Positions 29,242 through 36,933 of a DNA stretch of 64,000 nucleotides are shown here, piece by piece (positions within the stretch are counted from its first letter, which is position 1; the number at the start of each line of letters is the position of its first letter). A program made the translations under genes and the position numbers. The DNA lies in assembly GCA_049322255.1 (NCBI GenBank), contig JBMORE010000166.1:1-64000 (forward strand). The letters are read 5' to 3'. The notes under the pieces were generated by a model, which had not been told where the DNA came from, searched no databases, and saw nothing but the letters and a program-made list of their open reading frames with translations. This stretch comes from Myxococcota bacterium (GTDB taxonomy: Bacteria; Myxococcota; Myxococcia; Myxococcales; Myxococcaceae).

Positions 29242-30351
29242 ATGGCCGCCGTGGTGTTCGAGAAAGCCTCCGTCCTCTGTTACCGCCTCTTCGACGTCGC
29301 CGAGGCGATTGATTTGGAGAAGGCCCGGGCGCTGGCCGCCGAAGAAAGCCGCCGTCTGCGCCTGACCCGTGCGGGCAGCGAATACCTGGTATTGCCCAAT
29401 CCTCCTTTGGCGGTGGGGCTGGCCCCGCGCATGGTGCCGCTCTCCTTCGGCCCGATGACCATGGAAGTGGCGGTGCACCTGTTCGACTTCGGGGTGGCCT
29501 CGGTCATCCTCAAGGCCCCGGTGCGCGCGGGAACCACCATGGAGGAGCTGGTGCCTTTGTGCGACGAGCTCTACGACAGCCTGGAGGTGGAGAAGGCGGC
29601 GGTGGAGGTGTTGGGGCAGATGCGCCAGGCGCTCGCCCCCGCGCTCGGGGAAGGCCAGCTGTGGACGCAGAACGAGAGCTACACGGTGGTGTTCGCCGAG
29701 AAGCTGCGCGGAGAACCCAAGGCGGAAGAGCTGCTCACCCACGGAGAGTGGCTCGCGCGGCTCCTCTTGGGCGAGGTAGGGGAGCGGCCGTTGTCGAAGA
29801 AGGAAACCCTCGACGTGCTCGAGCACCAGTTCAGCTACACCGACCTGGACTTGGCGGTCATCGACTGGAACGCAGCCTTCGTCTACGAGCCCTCGGGGAG
29901 CCAAGACATTCCCGACCTGCTCGAGATTGCCAACGCCCAGCTGCTCGAGCTGCGCTTCTTCGACGACAAGCTGGACCGGCAGCTGCGGGAGACCTACACC
30001 CAGGTGGCGCGCAAGAAGCGCCGGTTCTCGGTGCTGCGCAGCCCCTACAGCGGCCTGGTTCGGCGGGTGATGGTCACCCTGTTCGAAATCACCGAGTTCA
30101 TCGAGCGGGTGGAGAACAGCCTGAAAATCGTCGGCGACTTTTATTTGGCCAAGGTCTACGAGGCCTCGGTGAAGCAGCTGCGCATCGGCAGCTGGCAGGC
30201 GCAGGTGACGCGCAAGCAGCGGCTGTTGGCGCAGACTTACAGCCTGCTCAAGGGAGAGGTGGACACCAACCGCTCCCACCTGCTCGAGCTGACCATCGTG
30301 GTGCTCATCATTCTCGAGGTGGTGCTCGCCTTCCTCCCGTGGAAGCCGTGA
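29242..30351 (+). CDS. Hypothetical protein with C-terminal TM helix (RMD1/CorA-like helical region)
   Basis: Long ORF with typical codon usage; DLAVIDWNAAF, LLELRFFD, LELTIVVLIILEV. Confidence 0.6.
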   Translation: MAAVVFEKASVLCYRLFDVAEAIDLEKARALAAEESRRLRLTRAGSEYLVLPNPPLAVGLAPRMVPLSFGPMTMEVAVHLFDFGVASVILKAPVRAGTTMEELVPLCDELYDSLEVEKAAVEVLGQMRQALAPALGEGQLWTQNESYTVVFAEKLRGEPKAEELLTHGEWLARLLLGEVGERPLSKKETLDVLEHQFSYTDLDLAVIDWNAAFVYEPSGSQDIPDLLEIANAQLLELRFFDDKLDRQLRETYTQVARKKRRFSVLRSPYSGLVRRVMVTLFEITEFIERVENSLKIVGDFYLAKVYEASVKQLRIGSWQAQVTRKQRLLAQTYSLLKGEVDTNRSHLLELTIVVLIILEVVLAFLPWKP

Positions 30352-30442
30352 CCTGACACGCGCGTCGGGTCTCTTTCTCTGACGCAGCCGTCGCACCCTC
30401 GCCAAGCCCCTGGGATAACTGGCACCGAGTGCTTTGTCGCGC

Positions 30443-30459
30443 CTGGCGCGGTGCTTGCT
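30443..30459 (+). promoter_or_regulatory. sigma54 promoter for precursor/radical SAM pair
   Basis: CTGGCGCG-GTGC-TTGCT, near-consensus -24/-12. Confidence 0.7.
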
Positions 30460-30490
30460 CACCCGCGCTTCTTCGAAGGAGCAGCGACTC

Positions 30491-30850
30491 ATGAACCAAT
30501 GCCGACGCTGTGGTGGTTTCGTTCCCCCCAACCAGGACGCGTGCCCCAACTGCAGAATCCCCTCGAGCCGCTGGTGGCTGTTGCCGCTGGCCACCGCGGG
30601 GGCCGGGTTCATGTCGCTCACGCTCGCCGCTTGTTACGGCGCTCCTTGCACCGTCGCTCTGCCGGACGGCGGAGTAGGCTCCGGCTCTTGTATTCTTTGC
30701 AACGACCCACTTCCGGATGGCGGCAGCCGTCTCAATGACCCCAACGACGATTTTTGCTTCCAGGGTCAGCTTCCACGGCCCGATGGCGGGGGCGACGGGG
30801 GAACCGCCGATGGTGGGGCGACCGACGGTGGCGCAGACGCGGGGCCTTGA
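30491..30850 (+). CDS. Putative radical-SAM substrate: Zn-ribbon, TM, LAAC-YG lipoprotein-like protein (119 aa)
   Basis: CRRC..CPNC, hydrophobic stretch, lipobox LAAC then YG; DGG repeats; 3 nt upstream of the rSAM gene. Confidence 0.75.
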   Translation: MNQCRRCGGFVPPNQDACPNCRIPSSRWWLLPLATAGAGFMSLTLAACYGAPCTVALPDGGVGSGSCILCNDPLPDGGSRLNDPNDDFCFQGQLPRPDGGGDGGTADGGATDGGADAGP

Positions 30851-30853
30851 GAA

Positions 30854-32158
30854 GTGGAGGCCGAACGCGAACCGCGCGTAGACGGAAACAGCCTCGCGGC
30901 CGCGACCGCCCGGGATGAGCTGTTCCGCCGTTTCCCGGTGAAGCAGAGAAGGTTTCCCGCCTACGTGGTGTGGGAGCTGACGCTGCGGTGCGATCAGCGA
31001 TGCACCCACTGCGGCTCCCGTGCAGGAGAAGCCAGAGGACGGGAGCTCTCCACCGAGCAGGCCCTCGGTGTCGTCGAGGAGCTCCAACAGCTGGGCACCT
31101 TCGAGGTCGTGCTCATCGGTGGTGAGGCGTACCTCCACCCCGGCTTCCTCGACATCGTCTCCGCGCTCAAGCGCGCCGGAATTCGTCCGACGATGACGAC
31201 CGGCGGCCGTGGCGTCACCGAGGAGCTCGCCGGGAAGATGGCCGCTGCCGGTCTGCACTCGGTGTCGGTCAGCATCGACGGGCTGGAGTCGACCCACGAC
31301 CTCATGCGTGCCGCCCGCGGGAGCTTTGCTTCTGCGAGCGCTGCCTTAAGAGCGCTCAAGGACGCCGGCCTGCGCACGGCCTCCAACCTCAACTTGAACC
31401 GCCTCAACCAGGCTGAGCTCGAGCCGCTCTTCGAGCATCTCCGTGGGCTGGGAATCTCCGCCTGGCAAGTGCAGATCACCAGCCCGCTGGGCCGCGCCGC
31501 CGACCGACCGGCGATGCTCTTGCAGCCGTGGGACCTCATCGAGCTGGTGCCGCGCCTTGCGGTGCTCAAGAAGCGCGCTTGGGAAGAGTCACGCATCCTG
31601 GTTTTTCCGGGCAACAACTTGGGCTACTTCGGTCCCGAGGAGGCGCTCCTGCGTTCCCCGCGGCCGGGAATGGCAGACCACTGGCAGGGCTGTCAGGCGG
31701 GCTCCTTGGTGATGGGCATCGAGTCCGATGGCGGCGTCAAAGGCTGTCCTTCGCTGCAGAGTGTGGCGTACGTCGGCGGTCACGCGAGCCAGCGGTCGCT
31801 CCGCGAGATTTGGGACCAGGCGCCTCAGCTGTCGCTGCTCCGTCAGCGGACGGTGGACGATTTGTGGGGCTTCTGCCGCACCTGCCCATTCGCCGCGACG
31901 TGCCTGGGAGGCTGCTCCTTCACCGCGCACGCTCTCTTCGGCCGCCCAGGCAACAATCCGTACTGTCACTTCCGCGCGCGCACGCTGGCGACACAAGGCA
32001 AGCGGGAGCGCTTGGTTCTCCGGAAAGCGGCCCCGGGAGAACCCTTCGACCACGGACTTTTCGAGATCATCGAAGAGCCGTTCGATGCGCCGGATCCGCA
32101 GCCACCAACGCCCCAGGCGCTGATGAATCGGCGGCTCACCAGCCGCGCGGGCGAGTAA
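30854..32158 (+). CDS. Radical SAM/SPASM maturase, PlpX splicease-like
   Basis: VVWELTLRCDQRCTHCGSRAG, GNNLGYFGP, GCQAG..GIESDG.VKGCPSL, LWGFCRTC..C.GGC, GNNPYC. Confidence 0.88.
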   Translation: MEAEREPRVDGNSLAAATARDELFRRFPVKQRRFPAYVVWELTLRCDQRCTHCGSRAGEARGRELSTEQALGVVEELQQLGTFEVVLIGGEAYLHPGFLDIVSALKRAGIRPTMTTGGRGVTEELAGKMAAAGLHSVSVSIDGLESTHDLMRAARGSFASASAALRALKDAGLRTASNLNLNRLNQAELEPLFEHLRGLGISAWQVQITSPLGRAADRPAMLLQPWDLIELVPRLAVLKKRAWEESRILVFPGNNLGYFGPEEALLRSPRPGMADHWQGCQAGSLVMGIESDGGVKGCPSLQSVAYVGGHASQRSLREIWDQAPQLSLLRQRTVDDLWGFCRTCPFAATCLGGCSFTAHALFGRPGNNPYCHFRARTLATQGKRERLVLRKAAPGEPFDHGLFEIIEEPFDAPDPQPPTPQALMNRRLTSRAGE

Positions 32159-32177: not shown

Positions 32178-32429
32178 TTACCGGGAGCAGCTCGTGCGCT
32201 CGGAGCAAATGCTCCCGTTGCACTCCTCGCCGTCGCGGCAGGTGTAAGGCGCGCCGGTGTTACAGGCGGTCTTGCAGGCGTACTCACAGGTCTTGGCCGC
32301 TGAGCACACCCACTCCCCCGGGCATGCGCTCCCTGCGGAGGTTTGCGCGCAGTCGCAGCTGGTCTGACAGGTGGCCGCGCCACCACAGGCGGCGGCGAAG
32401 AGCCCGAGGGCGAGAAGGAGCGCGCGCAT
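32178..32429 (-). CDS. Small Cys-rich lipoprotein (13 Cys in 83 aa)
   Basis: Signal ending AAAC plus 12 further Cys. Confidence 0.7.
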   Translation of the reverse strand: MRALLLALGLFAAACGGAATCQTSCDCAQTSAGSACPGEWVCSAAKTCEYACKTACNTGAPYTCRDGEECNGSICSERTSCSR

Positions 32430-33146: not shown

Positions 33147-33311
33147 GTGAGGTCGGCTAACTACCGGCCCTGAATGTCCCGGTCAACGCCCGTGCTGGTG
33201 CGAGGAGGCGCAGTCGCACTTGTGTGGAATTCGTGCAGCCATGTATGGGCAGATCCGCGAAATCACGGTGAGCAGGCAAGGGGGCTTGAAGGTTGCAGCC
33301 TGGCAGCGCAG

Positions 33312-34574
33312 ATGCGTTCCCGCGCCCTTGTCCTGATTTCGGCCAGCCTCGCCGCCGTCGTCGTGCCCGGGTGCAGCTGCGGCCCGGGACCTTGTGAAAA
33401 CGACGCCGAGTGCGGCAGCGCCGCGGTGTGTCTACCCATCGCGGTGTGCGCGGCGGCGTGCAGCGCGGACAAACAGTGTCTGTCGTCGGAGAAGTGCTCG
33501 GCGGCAGGAGGCTGCGTGCCCCAGGCGGGTTGCGGGGCGGACCTCGACTGCCCGGCAGGTCAGGTGTGCGGCTCGCTGGCCAGCTGTGAAGAGAGCTGCG
33601 TTACCGCGGGGTGTCCGCCCGGAGAGGTGTGCCGCACCGACGGTCACTGCCGCAACCCCAACGCCGGGGGCGCCCCAAGCTGCGGGGGCGAGCTCTTCCA
33701 GGTCAGTCGGGTGCAGGCGAACATGCTCATCGTCCTCGACCGTTCGGGGAGCATGATGAGCGAGGCGGGGGGAGCTCCCAAGTGGACCAGCGCGGTGAAC
33801 GCGGTGCGCAGCGTCACTTCCCAGCACGACGCCGAGATTCGTTTCGGGCTGATGATGTTCCCCGGGACGAGCTCCTGCTCGGGGCCGAGCTACCCGGTGA
33901 CGGTGGGCGATGCGCGGGCGGCGGAGATTTCGGCCGCGCTCCCCGCCACCGCCACAGGCAGCGGAACGCCCATCGCCGCTGCCCTCACCGCCGCCTCCAA
34001 CGCCCCTGAGTTGGTGGATGCGACCCGTGCGAGCTACGTGCTCTTGGTCACCGACGGGAAGGAGAATTGCGGCGGCCGTCCCGGGCAAGTGGTGCAGTCG
34101 ATGTTCGCCCAGGGCATCAAGACGTACGTGGTGGGCTTCGGCGACGAAGTGGACGCGAACATGCTCTCGGCGATGGCCGTGGCCGGAGGCACCGCCCGCG
34201 CGGGCACTCCCAGCTACTACCAGGCCGACGACAGCGCCTCGCTGCTTTCGGCGATGAGCGCCATCGCCGCCGGCGCCAGCGGCTGCGACTTCAAGCTGGC
34301 CCAGGCGCCGCCCGACCCCAGCCGGATTTACCTCTACATCGACGGTCAGCAGGCGGCCCGCGACTCCAACAAGGTGAACGGCTGGGAGTACAACTCCGCC
34401 ACCGGCCGGGTGACCCTCTACGGGCCGACCTGCAGCGCGGTGTCCGCCAACCCGGCAGCCAAGGTGCAAATCGTCTACGGCTGCCCCGACGACTCGCTGG
34501 TGGAGGGCGGCCCCGGGCAAGGCATGTTCGACGCCGGCACGGTGGTTGACGACGGCGGCATCAGCTTCAACTGA
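33312..34574 (+). CDS. Cys-rich lipoprotein with vWA (MIDAS) domain
   Basis: PGCSC lipobox; Cys repeats; LDRSGSM, GTP, VTDG. Confidence 0.85.
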
Positions 34575-34632
34575 AGCGGCGGCTTTTCCCCTTCAAAACG
34601 CGCCGGCTCGCATGTTAGTAGGCGCGGCTACA

Positions 34633-36177
34633 ATGGAAATCCGCGCCGACGAAATCAGCAGAATCATCCGCGAGCAGATCAAGGACTTCGGGAAAAAAGT
34701 AGCGGTGGCCGAGACGGGCACCGTGCTCTCGGTGGGCGACGGCATCGCCCGCGTCTATGGCCTGGACGGAGCGCTGGCCGGCGAGCTGGTGGAGTTCGCC
34801 AATGGAGTGCGCGGCCTGGTGCTCAACCTCGAGGAGGACAACGTCGGCATCGCGGTGATGGGCGAGTTCCGCGACATTCGCGAGGGCGACGCCTGCAAGC
34901 GCACCGGGCAGATTGCTTCGGTGCCGGTGGGCAAGGCGCTCTTGGGCCGGGTGGTGAACGCGCTGGGCGAGCCGGTCGACGGCAAGGGCCCCATTCAGGC
35001 GAGCGAGACGCGCAAGTTGGAAATCAAGGCCCCGGGCATCGTCAAGCGCAAGAGCGTGCATGAGCCTTTGCAGACGGGCATCAAGGCTCTCGACGCGCTG
35101 GTGCCCATCGGCCGCGGGCAGCGCGAGCTCATCATCGGCGACCGCCAGACGGGCAAGACCGCGGTGGCGGTGGACGCCATCATCAACCAACGCGGCAAGG
35201 ACGTGTTCTGCGTCTACGTGGCCATCGGGCAGAAGCAGTCCACCGTGGCCCAGGTGGTGGACAAGCTGCGAAGCCAGGGCGCGCTCGACTACACCATCGT
35301 GGTGGCGGCCAACGCCTCCGACCCCGCGCCGATGCAGTTCTTCGCTCCCTACACGGGGGTGACGATGGGCGAGTACTTCCGCGACAACAAGATGCACGCC
35401 CTCATCGTGTACGACGACCTCTCCAAGCAGGCGGTGGCGTACCGGCAGCTGTCCTTGCTCCTGCGCCGCCCACCGGGCCGCGAGGCGTACCCCGGAGATG
35501 TCTTCTACATTCACTCCCGCCTGCTCGAGCGCGCCGCCAAGCTCTCCGACGCCGAAGGGGCTGGCTCGCTCACCGCCCTGCCCATCATCGAAACCCAGGC
35601 CGGCGACGTGTCGGCCTACATCCCCACCAACGTCATCTCCATCACCGACGGGCAGATTTTCCTCGAGACCGACCTCTTCTACGCGGGCGTGCGTCCGGCC
35701 ATCAACGTCGGCCTCTCGGTGTCCCGCGTGGGCAGCGCGGCGCAAATCAAGGCGATGAAGCAGGTGGCCGGCTCGCTCAAGCTGGAGCTGGCCCAGTACC
35801 GCGAGCTGGCGGCCTTTGCTCAGTTCGGAAGCGACCTGGACAAGGCCACCCAGGAGACGTTGGCTCGCGGCGCCCGCTTGGTGGAGCTGCTCAAGCAAGG
35901 CCAGTACGAGCCGATGCCGGTGGCCCGTCAGGTGATGCAGCTGTACGCGGGCACCAACCGCGACGATGCCCAGAAGCGAGGCTGGCTGCGGGACATCGAG
36001 GTGGCGGACGTCAGCCGCTGGGCGCGCGAGTTCGTGGCGTTCATGGACGGCAAGTACCCGCAGGTGGAGAAGGACATCGAGGCCAAGCGGGAGCTCACCG
36101 CCGACATCAAGACCGCGCTGAACAAGGCCCTCGCCGAGTTCAATGACGTATTTCAGCCGACGAAATCGAAGCAGTAG
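34633..36177 (+). CDS. atpA: F1 ATP synthase subunit alpha
   Basis: [43 protein letters not shown]. Confidence 0.99.
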
Positions 36178-36185
36178 AGGCGGCG

Positions 36186-36590
36186 CTACGAGCCGCGCAT
36201 GAGTTGGTCGAGAAATTCGATGAACTTCTCGATCGCCTCGCGCATGTGCTCATGCACGGAATCGACCCGCTCGAGCACGGCTAAGATGCGGACGCCATCG
36301 AGGTCCAGCACGTAGAGGTTTCGAAACAGGTGTAAGAGCCGCCGGTGCCAGTCGGGGCCGTCGAGGGGAACGGAGTTGAGGTCGCGCGCCACTCGCTCAA
36401 AGAGGCGCTCCAAGTGGGTGTAATAGCCGTGCACCAACGCACCCGCGCCGTAGAGCTCGAGCTGTGTCGAGGTGGCGTGAACCCTTTGGCGAGCAGCGCG
36501 TACTTCCGATGCCAGCCGGTTCAAGTCGCGAATCGCCAAGAGTGCTGAATCTCGCAGATCCGACGCCTTCGCGCGCAAGGCGTCATTCAT
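36186..36590 (-). CDS. HepT-like HEPN toxin with apparent internal in-frame deletion
   Basis: H..YT..E..F.RVA...G..WH..LL joined directly to HLFRNLY. Confidence 0.65.
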   Translation of the reverse strand: MNDALRAKASDLRDSALLAIRDLNRLASEVRAARQRVHATSTQLELYGAGALVHGYYTHLERLFERVARDLNSVPLDGPDWHRRLLHLFRNLYVLDLDGVRILAVLERVDSVHEHMREAIEKFIEFLDQLMRGS

Positions 36591-36933
36591 CGACCAGCTC
36601 TCCGTACCGTTGGTGGTAGGTGCGCCAGGCGTCATCGAGCGACTCGAAGCGAATGACATCGACTCCCAAACCAGTTGAATCCGCCGCTTTGGAGGCGACG
36701 CTCCATGCGATGTCCTCGTCCAAGCCCTCGACCATGAAGTCGAGGTCCGAGCCAGGCCTAAACGTGCCCCGGGGCAGGGACCCGATGAGCCAAATTCGCT
36801 TGGCTCCGTGTCGTCGAAAGACGGCAATCGCACGGGGAACCGCCTCGCGTGCCATTCGAACGGCCAGCTCTCGAGCTTGCTCCTCTAGCCGGGCTCGCTG
36901 ACGCCAACCATCGATATAGGGGGACACATCCAT
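36583..36933 (-). CDS. Minimal nucleotidyltransferase (MNT) antitoxin
   Basis: IGSLPRGTFRPGSDLDF (GS-x-DxD). Confidence 0.85.
   Translation of the reverse strand: MDVSPYIDGWRQRARLEEQARELAVRMAREAVPRAIAVFRRHGAKRIWLIGSLPRGTFRPGSDLDFMVEGLDEDIAWSVASKAADSTGLGVDVIRFESLDDAWRTYHQRYGELVDE

Follow-up and report, generated by a model that had tools for sequence, protein, structure and literature searches.

A candidate splicease system with a zinc-ribbon, lipoprotein-like substrate in a Myxococcota bacterium

Can a radical S-adenosylmethionine (SAM) enzyme edit a protein backbone at the very cysteine through which that protein is anchored to the membrane? The question is raised by a two-gene unit in a 64,000-nucleotide stretch of DNA (the window) from a Myxococcota bacterium of the family Myxococcaceae (GenBank assembly GCA_049322255.1, contig JBMORE010000166.1, positions 1 to 64,000, forward strand). 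On the + strand, an open reading frame for a 119-amino-acid partner protein (30491-30850) is followed after a gap of 3 nt by one for a 434-amino-acid enzyme (30854-32158). The original prediction, made from the letters of the DNA alone, described the enzyme as a relative of the splicease PlpX and placed its target, an XYG motif, on the lipobox cysteine of the partner. Splicease activity is defined by the excision of tyramine (-C8H9NO). As judged from homologous loci, profile searches and structural models, the unit is somewhat better than an even bet to be a binary splicease system with a pre-lipoprotein as substrate.

The enzyme and its pairing with a partner gene

30854..32158, + strand: splicease-clade radical SAM/SPASM enzyme, 434 amino acids (NCBIfam, Pfam, tree, fold model)
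30989..31012, + strand: radical SAM CxxxCxxC motif, C46, C50 and C53 (sequence, alignment)
31691..31966, + strand: SPASM region with seven cysteines, C280 to C371 (Pfam, alignment; pattern equal to that of a TIGR04103 member)

The Pfam domains Radical_SAM and SPASM both score above cut-off in the enzyme, and its start at 30854 is supported because a database relative (P0008) has a homologous N-terminus. Among NCBIfam models, TIGR04103 (444.1 bits) and TIGR03913 (371.1 bits) far exceed any other family (at most 136), with the match to TIGR03913 stopping at profile position 393. The first of these models, rSAM_nif11_3, presumably includes PlpX itself, by way of IPR026482. Since members of TIGR04103 and TIGR03913 score 415-435 bits on each other's model, the enzyme is about as distant from either family as the two are from one another. 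A tree of 164 enzymes places it in a branch of 123 rows (Shimodaira-Hasegawa-like approximate likelihood ratio test, SH-aLRT, 99), whose sister, a group of 32 rows, includes a Nostoc member of TIGR04103 and an Azospirillum member of TIGR03913; the joint 155-row branch has an SH-aLRT of 100. The tree comes from a quick search with midpoint rooting, in which even the outermost rows score best on splicease models, and two loci without an unbroken enzyme frame (L010 and L015) were left out. Of the 107 columns that the sister group conserves, the enzyme shares 91. The seven cysteines of its SPASM region follow the pattern of the Nostoc enzyme, and its fold model is a radical SAM/SPASM barrel (predicted local distance difference test, pLDDT, 90). 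The PDB, searched by sequence and by fold, yielded no solved splicease; the nearest solved folds, at 14-24% identity, include thioether formers and the anaerobic sulfatase-maturating enzyme (anSME).

Several points weigh against a simple assignment: the enzyme lies below both family cut-offs (725 for TIGR04103 and 591.75 for TIGR03913), it deviates at 16 of the 107 sister-conserved columns, and the midpoint-rooted tree holds no outgroup from outside the spliceases. The match to PlpX-type enzymes that had been proposed therefore stands at the level of the clade and not as membership of TIGR04103 or TIGR03913. Profile scores and tree alike group the enzyme with members of these two families, and the scores set it far from other SPASM families. 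Judged by sequence, the enzyme is a splicease-clade protein in a separate branch, belonging to neither curated family.

Pairing was examined at 175 loci, 134 of which have an enzyme at least 55% identical to the query (a number that includes the query locus and some repeats between searches). The initial set of partners was chosen by the pattern of the N-terminal zinc ribbon, with neither YG nor lipobox demanded. A homologous partner gene is present at 124 of the 134 loci, where it lies upstream in tandem (65), upstream on the opposite strand in head-to-head orientation (53) or downstream (6). Among 301 genomes of the phylum, the enzyme is found in 48 and the partner in 47, with 46 genomes having the two together; these counts are not independent because the genomes are kin. 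In genomes G208 and G133, partner and enzyme are on different contigs, and in G074, a fragmented genome, a partner but no enzyme was found. The pair occurs in cultivable myxobacteria (Sorangium, Polyangium, Archangium, Cystobacter and Pyxidicoccus) and in records labelled Sericytochromatia and Spirochaetota; in the query genome, which is 99.6% complete, each gene is single-copy. No other gene family recurs at more than 9 of the 124 loci, and no conserved peptidase or transporter was found among them. Against this stand the 10 loci with no adjacent partner, 4 of which have the enzyme at a contig end, and the relatedness of the sequences. The unit is common in myxobacteria and is real, widespread and coherent.

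Predicted splice site and lipobox in the partner protein

30491..30850, + strand: predicted substrate gene, 119 amino acids, with zinc ribbon, lipoprotein-type signal, CYG and acidic tail (open reading frame, homologue alignment)
30554..30631, + strand: R22-A47, a basic n-region followed by an uncharged h-region of weak hydrophobicity (residue scoring)
30623..30634, + strand: lipobox L45-A46-A47-C48 (pattern, homologues)
30632..30640, + strand: C48-Y49-G50, predicted splice site, an XYG in which X is the lipobox cysteine (homologue conservation)
30641..30847, + strand: variable acidic tail with cysteine pairs and DGG repeats (homologues often with PF11617 or PF13948 repeats)

As foreseen, YG is the conserved, putative target: it is retained in 124 of 125 distinct partners although their tails range from 4 to 297 amino acids. 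These tails are net acidic in 120 of 123 partners, many of the longer ones carrying PF11617 or PF13948 repeats, and in the query Y49 is the sole tyrosine of the whole protein, as the translation bears out. The site reads A-A-C-Y-G-A in the query, and two proven splice sites read A-A-M-Y-G-V and Q-A-M-Y-G-A in the available part of the supplement to PMC11414181. The commonest partner form, LMAC-YG, looks like a lipobox overlaid on a splice context. One partner has lost the tyrosine, a point against the favoured reading. This partner, at locus L171 in genome G247, keeps ribbon and lipobox but reads C-S-G, and its enzyme sits on a long branch; the same genome encodes four full-length partner genes.

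The proposed coincidence of lipobox cysteine and X holds for the query and for 105 of the 125 partners, one more having two candidate cysteines (L088, counted apart). It does not hold throughout the family: in 18 partners, the cysteine lies 2 to 17 residues ahead of the tyrosine and X is Leu, Ala, Val, Ile or Pro. This spaced state is nested among CYG rows and requires at least four changes on the enzyme tree, whereas CYG is the majority state and is present in the deepest branches. With 105 CYG and 18 spaced partners, the family conserves both the lipobox and the predicted splice site; the two usually coincide but need not. For the same reason, a function that needs the cysteine as the modified residue cannot be general. 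Three partners (L077, L064 and L032) were read by eye as CYG and one (L048) as spaced, the latter being excluded from lipobox, gene-orientation, tail and hydropathy scoring; L171 was excluded from tail scoring. A further 120 longer homologues (118 LMAC-YG and 2 unparsed) were kept out of the CYG fraction because the search profile favours the CYG form.

Whether the partner is a lipoprotein was assessed from its signal region. A lysine or arginine lies between ribbon and cysteine in all 124 scored partners, and the 12 residues preceding the cysteine are uncharged in 122 of them. The strict and broad lipobox patterns used for scoring are the forms we take to be standard; the broad, PROSITE-like one fits 117 of 124 partners, and the query's LAAC satisfies both. 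LAAC is also the second commonest lipobox (11 of 160) among the pattern-picked lipoprotein candidates of the genome, which encodes both Lgt and Lsp, with two matches each. The best argument for lipoprotein identity comes from the spaced homologues, in which the cysteine remains at the end of the h-region and position +2 resembles that of ordinary candidates, being G, A, S or T in most cases. The lipoprotein-like signal of the earlier description is thus borne out, with a basic n-region, an uncharged h-region and a lipobox kept in the family, although the h-region is weakly hydrophobic.

Other features of the signal tell against lipidation. The strict lipobox fits only 28 of 124 partners. Mean hydropathy of the h-region is 1.43 in the query and 1.53 in the family, compared with a median of 2.04 and a tenth percentile of 1.40 among the 160 pattern-picked lipoproteins of the genome. 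The family typically has methionine at -2, a residue found there in 2 of these 160, none of which has tyrosine at +2. At position 48 and behind a folded domain, the cysteine is also beyond the usual distance of about 35 residues from the start, the ribbon accounting for about 21 residues of this offset. Moreover, Lgt and Lsp would have to tolerate a ketoamide adjoining the cysteine. All told, the signal region and its homologues make it probable that the partner is lipidated.

The same atypical residues and weak h-region are what would be expected if the partner were spliced but never lipidated. The uncharged stretch would then act as a signal anchor that is not cleaved or as a helix recognised by the enzyme, the lipobox appearance would arise from a small-small-X-Y-G context with cysteine as X, and the product would be a bitopic membrane protein with a cysteine-derived ketoamide at the outer face. 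The A-A and Q-A contexts of proven splice sites in the available part of the PMC11414181 supplement fit this explanation, as does the fact that a zinc ribbon joined to a membrane helix is a common layout among non-lipoproteins. It is nevertheless unlikely, though the best surviving of the alternatives, because in the 18 spaced homologues the lipobox cysteine stays at the end of the h-region while XYG is displaced, with +2 most often G, A, S or T. The frequency of LAAC among the genome's candidates also speaks against it, and so do three loci of a sister branch (L129, L133 and L136) that combine a ribbon and a lipobox cysteine with distant XYG repeats.

Splicing could also serve as a maturation switch or a release device. 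Loss of the +2 tyrosine might license or block Lgt and Lsp, or a cysteine-derived ketoamide might shed the anchor, either by elimination of the S-diacylglyceryl group or by cleavage through a five-membered thiolactone that frees the tail. The prevalence of CYG and its presence in the deepest branches are in keeping with such a role, and glycine, the residue left at +2 after excision, occupies that position in 49 of the 160 ordinary candidates, compared with none for tyrosine. On chemical grounds, a free thiol could cleave through the thiolactone. In the accessible text of PMC10533398, the ketoamide enolises at the former alpha-carbon, which by chemical inference would favour loss of a beta-thioether or S-linked lipid. 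Homologues with Leu, Ala, Val, Ile or Pro as X are incapable of this chemistry, and they keep YG through at least four changes of state, which renders a switch or release function quite unlikely.

The zinc ribbon as a candidate docking module

30500..30553, + strand: zinc ribbon, C4-C21, predicted enzyme-docking or activator module (homology to the TIGR03913 C-terminal extension, complex model)
31628..31681, + strand: part of the predicted ribbon-binding patch on the enzyme, F259-A264 and H276, with more contacts at P345-T349 and F373-T377 (complex model)

The partner begins with a zinc ribbon, its cysteines at positions 4, 7, 18 and 21. Searches with partner N-termini returned TIGR03913 as the top NCBIfam model, matched by 23 of 72 (best E-value 1.6e-6), the query's own fragment giving no match. 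The three ribbon matches displayed fall at profile positions 426-461, which correspond to a C-terminal extension of the TIGR03913 enzyme, and profiles of substrate-borne and enzyme-linked ribbons match each other at 96.6%. This homology has two points against it: ribbons of such spacing are generic (DZR matches 43 of the 72 N-termini), and ribbon-only E-values to sister loci are weak (best 0.014). A search of ESM Atlas returned only myxobacterial clusters below 0.9 and generic ribbons.

The placement of the ribbon in the sister group is informative. It is present at all 16 loci of one 16-row subgroup, where it is fused to the enzyme C-terminus at two (L082 and L084), encoded by a separate small gene just downstream of the enzyme at ten (L119-L123, L125, L130, L138, L139 and L141), fused in a longer variant to the enzyme N-terminus at one (L083) and placed at the head of a lipoprotein-like substrate at three (L129, L133 and L136). 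The separate ribbon genes occupy the slot that PlpY fills at locus L081. The other 16-row subgroup, which contains the Nostoc enzyme, has no convincing ribbon in its 16 loci and carries a PlpY-type helix motif at 11 of them. Across the 134 query-branch loci, this helix motif gave two matches, neither in a partner gene by context.

Structural modelling predicts docking of the ribbon on the enzyme. The enzyme-partner complex model scores 0.90, compared with 0.00 for the best control; its runs share at least 66% of contacts, and the partner has a pLDDT of at least 57. The mark used for such models is reached by 116 of 157 solved pairs and 2 of 215 mismatched pairs, counts that apply only roughly here. 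Confident contacts join ribbon residues 1-21, together with residue 46, to the enzyme near 259-264, 276, 345-349 and 373-377. In the model, H276 of the enzyme contacts F10 of the ribbon. The query branch has histidine at this position in 90% of its members, the GDL-type group in 91% and a second ribbon class in all three; the position is mostly Phe in the PlpY-helix group. C48 and Y49 are not among the confident contacts, and the model gives no verdict on their placement in the active site.

The suggestion that the ribbon acts as the leader had been drawn from the lack of a neighbouring gene for PqqD or PlpY, that is, for a recognition element (RRE) of peptides that are ribosomally synthesised and then modified post-translationally (RiPPs). 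That lack is real: PqqD (PF05402) is absent from the contig, with two matches on other contigs of the genome, and neither a Nif11-type precursor nor a PlpY gene was found for the locus by family scans and a PlpY search. Genome-wide, no PlpY-like protein was convincing, the best being a weak match on contig C147 (E-value 0.13) without the Y/helix motif. A convergent 83-amino-acid gene (32178-32429, - strand) was considered as PlpY-like and rejected, having no family match. In the available text of PMC11414181, PlpY is an activator that remains functional when fused to enzyme or substrate, and Y proteins are as a rule missing from splicease systems outside cyanobacteria. Because its absence is the norm there, the lack of PlpY at this locus is not itself evidence on the ribbon, and that part of the argument is weak. 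The enzyme-binding part fares better, through the homology to TIGR03913, the placement at sister loci, the complex model and H276.

The ribbon probably fills the role of PlpY, with homology computed, docking modelled and activation drawn from the comparison. In nature, it is as mobile as PlpY is in fusions. It may represent a second, non-RRE activator module of spliceases, undescribed so far, that shifts freely between either end of the enzyme, a gene of its own and the head of the substrate.

Relatives, expression and proposed mechanism

The type I systems PlpX/PlpY/PlpA and PcpX/PcpY/PcpA resemble the query in having a radical SAM/SPASM enzyme with an equal cysteine pattern and an XYG in a similar context, and the TIGR04103 member at L081 is 49% identical to the query enzyme. 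They differ in that the query scores 444 bits against the cut-off of 725, lacks a Nif11 leader, a PlpY gene and a PlpY-type helix, and has cysteine as X in a substrate made up of a zinc ribbon, a lipoprotein signal and a tail that is folded or repetitive. Closer in layout are the binary type II systems RhaX/RhaA and RcsX/RcsA, which, in the available portions of PMC11414181 and PMC11626197, likewise consist of two genes without a Y protein and carry the activating element at the substrate N-terminus. There, a PlpY-like helix takes the place of the zinc ribbon, and accounts of the precursors present them as RiPPs of the leader-core kind, whereas the query's leader ends in a lipobox and has no conserved peptidase or transporter nearby.

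The GDL-motif (DUF1843) systems of TIGR03913 form a sister splicease-like branch with YG substrates and share the zinc ribbon (model positions 426-461). Their ribbon is either part of the enzyme chain or the product of a gene that directly follows, whereas the query's is on the substrate; the query reaches 371 bits against a cut-off of 591.75, and the TIGR03913 substrates are small helical DUF1843 proteins without a lipobox. Another pair, TIGR04133/TIGR04134, comprises a radical SAM/SPASM enzyme curated, by the model names, as lipoprotein-paired, and was found in the Bacteroides control genome. TIGR04133 is distant from the query enzyme (135.6 bits against a cut-off of 425), and the query genome has no TIGR04134 match; TIGR04134 lipoproteins presumably carry YG a few residues after the cysteine. 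The myxobacterial loci L129, L133 and L136 are like the query in their zinc ribbon, lipobox, acidic tail, XYG sites and neighbouring splicease-like enzyme, but belong to a separate enzyme branch (47-50% identity) with a longer ribbon and three to four XYG repeats away from the cysteine.

Other arrangements were seen among related enzymes. Myxobacterial PlpX-like enzymes at ten loci (L124, L126-L128, L132, L135, L137, L142, L143 and L146) neighbour proteins in which YG is repeated 3-10 times and the leader has a PlpY-like helix motif; at L137 and L143 the protein also has a hydrophobic segment at its end. Splicease-like enzymes of lower identity (33-39%) accompany arrays of short YG-rich peptides (L148 and L150) or, in Agathobacter (L085), a short MYG peptide upstream.

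In the literature search, from whose reach most subscription journals lay outside, no CYG, lipobox or zinc-ribbon splicease substrate was described. The available part of the PMC11414181 supplement names spliceotide types II, III and V, and the Scott 2022 survey is reported to define types from 27 characterised and 939 predicted systems, using UniProt reference proteomes. Since such proteomes were used and the branch occurs in the long-sequenced Sorangium and Cystobacter, it may already be catalogued there. Compared with these systems, the locus would combine a known chemistry with substrates of an unusual class and with an activator module that is not an RRE and has a predicted binding site.

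That the chemistry is a different one is improbable. The enzyme might have drifted from tyramine excision to a Cys-Tyr or Cys-to-carbon thioether, or to backbone scission at the tyrosine, and both the branch-specific substitutions at 16 of the 107 sister-conserved columns and the presence of thioether formers and anSME among the nearest solved folds would suit such a drift. YG persists when separated from the cysteine, however, most sister loci examined have YG-bearing partners, and the SPASM cysteine pattern is identical to that of the TIGR04103 member. The idea that the two genes adjoin by accident, the radical SAM gene being an orphan and the small lipoprotein unrelated to it, can appeal to the 10 of 134 loci without a partner but is effectively refuted by the 124 paired loci, tandem and head-to-head, and by the partner's presence in 46 of 48 enzyme-bearing genomes.

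30350..30371, + strand: terminator-like stem-loop ending the upstream gene (consensus scan)
30444..30459, + strand: sigma-54-type -24/-12 promoter-like site (pattern scan)
30476..30481, + strand: ribosome-binding-site-like AAGGAG, 9 nt ahead of the ATG (read from sequence)

Every element originally described at the locus is present: the sigma-54-type promoter, the 119-amino-acid frame with ribbon, helix, LAAC48-Y49-G50 and DGG-rich tail, and the radical SAM/SPASM gene 3 nt on. The stem-loop closes the upstream gene, so the two-gene unit probably begins its own transcript, although the scan is weak (7 stem-loops found compared with 3.3 in shuffles). The sigma-54-type site is the sole match in the window to what we take to be the -24/-12 consensus (0.12 expected; 10 of 100 shuffles had one), and taken alone it is modest evidence. 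Among 123 homologous partner genes, 25 have such a site upstream (at most one mismatch allowed); for random 260-nt windows drawn from these loci, the figure is 57 of 5360. A sigma-70 promoter scan gave no match.

Downstream, the 83-amino-acid gene at 32178-32429 (- strand) encodes a cysteine-rich, lipoprotein-like protein, and a gene at 33174-34574 (+ strand) encodes a cysteine-rich, lipoprotein-like protein with a von Willebrand factor type A domain, weakly CglB-like (below cut-off); neither is conserved at homologous loci. Further on (34546-36933) lie a gene without atp neighbours, which we take from its motifs to be F1 ATPase alpha-like, and then an apparent nucleotidyltransferase/HEPN-type pair on the minus and plus strands.

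In the favoured account, a binary splicease system acting on a pre-lipoprotein, the sigma-54 promoter would drive both genes. The substrate's N-terminal zinc ribbon would dock on the enzyme near H276 in the cytoplasm, as modelled, and would recruit or activate it, a task that falls to PlpY or a PlpY-like leader helix in other spliceases. With a weak signal that follows a folded domain, there might, speculatively, be time for modification before export. Once exported, the protein would be diacylglycerylated by Lgt on the intact thiol of C48 and cut before C48 by Lsp, with ribbon and signal discarded. The product would be a membrane-anchored acidic protein bearing an electrophilic ketoamide at the lipid anchor, or a few residues away in the minority of homologues. 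Because 18 homologues place XYG a few residues from the cysteine, the family-wide requirement would be a ketoamide near the anchor, not one derived from cysteine, and a cysteine-specific release or switch would be limited at most to the majority form. Ketoamide spliceotides inhibit serine and cysteine proteases in the accessible text of PMC11626197, and a membrane-proximal trap for such proteases is therefore, by analogy, the most likely leading role of the product.

According to the available part of a 2022 review (PMC9811515), the final products of spliceotide pathways in native hosts were still elusive. In the branch described here, the product would be a defined protein that can be enriched from membranes of cultivable myxobacteria, so native splicing can be tested by proteomics. 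With its predicted binding site, the ribbon is a tangible counterpart to the PlpY helix, and its natural fusions could serve as models for enzyme fusions that are constitutively active, for use in protein labelling. If splicing and lipidation do meet on the same cysteine, the family would extend the chemistry of the lipoprotein anchor and provide a probe of what Lgt and Lsp tolerate.

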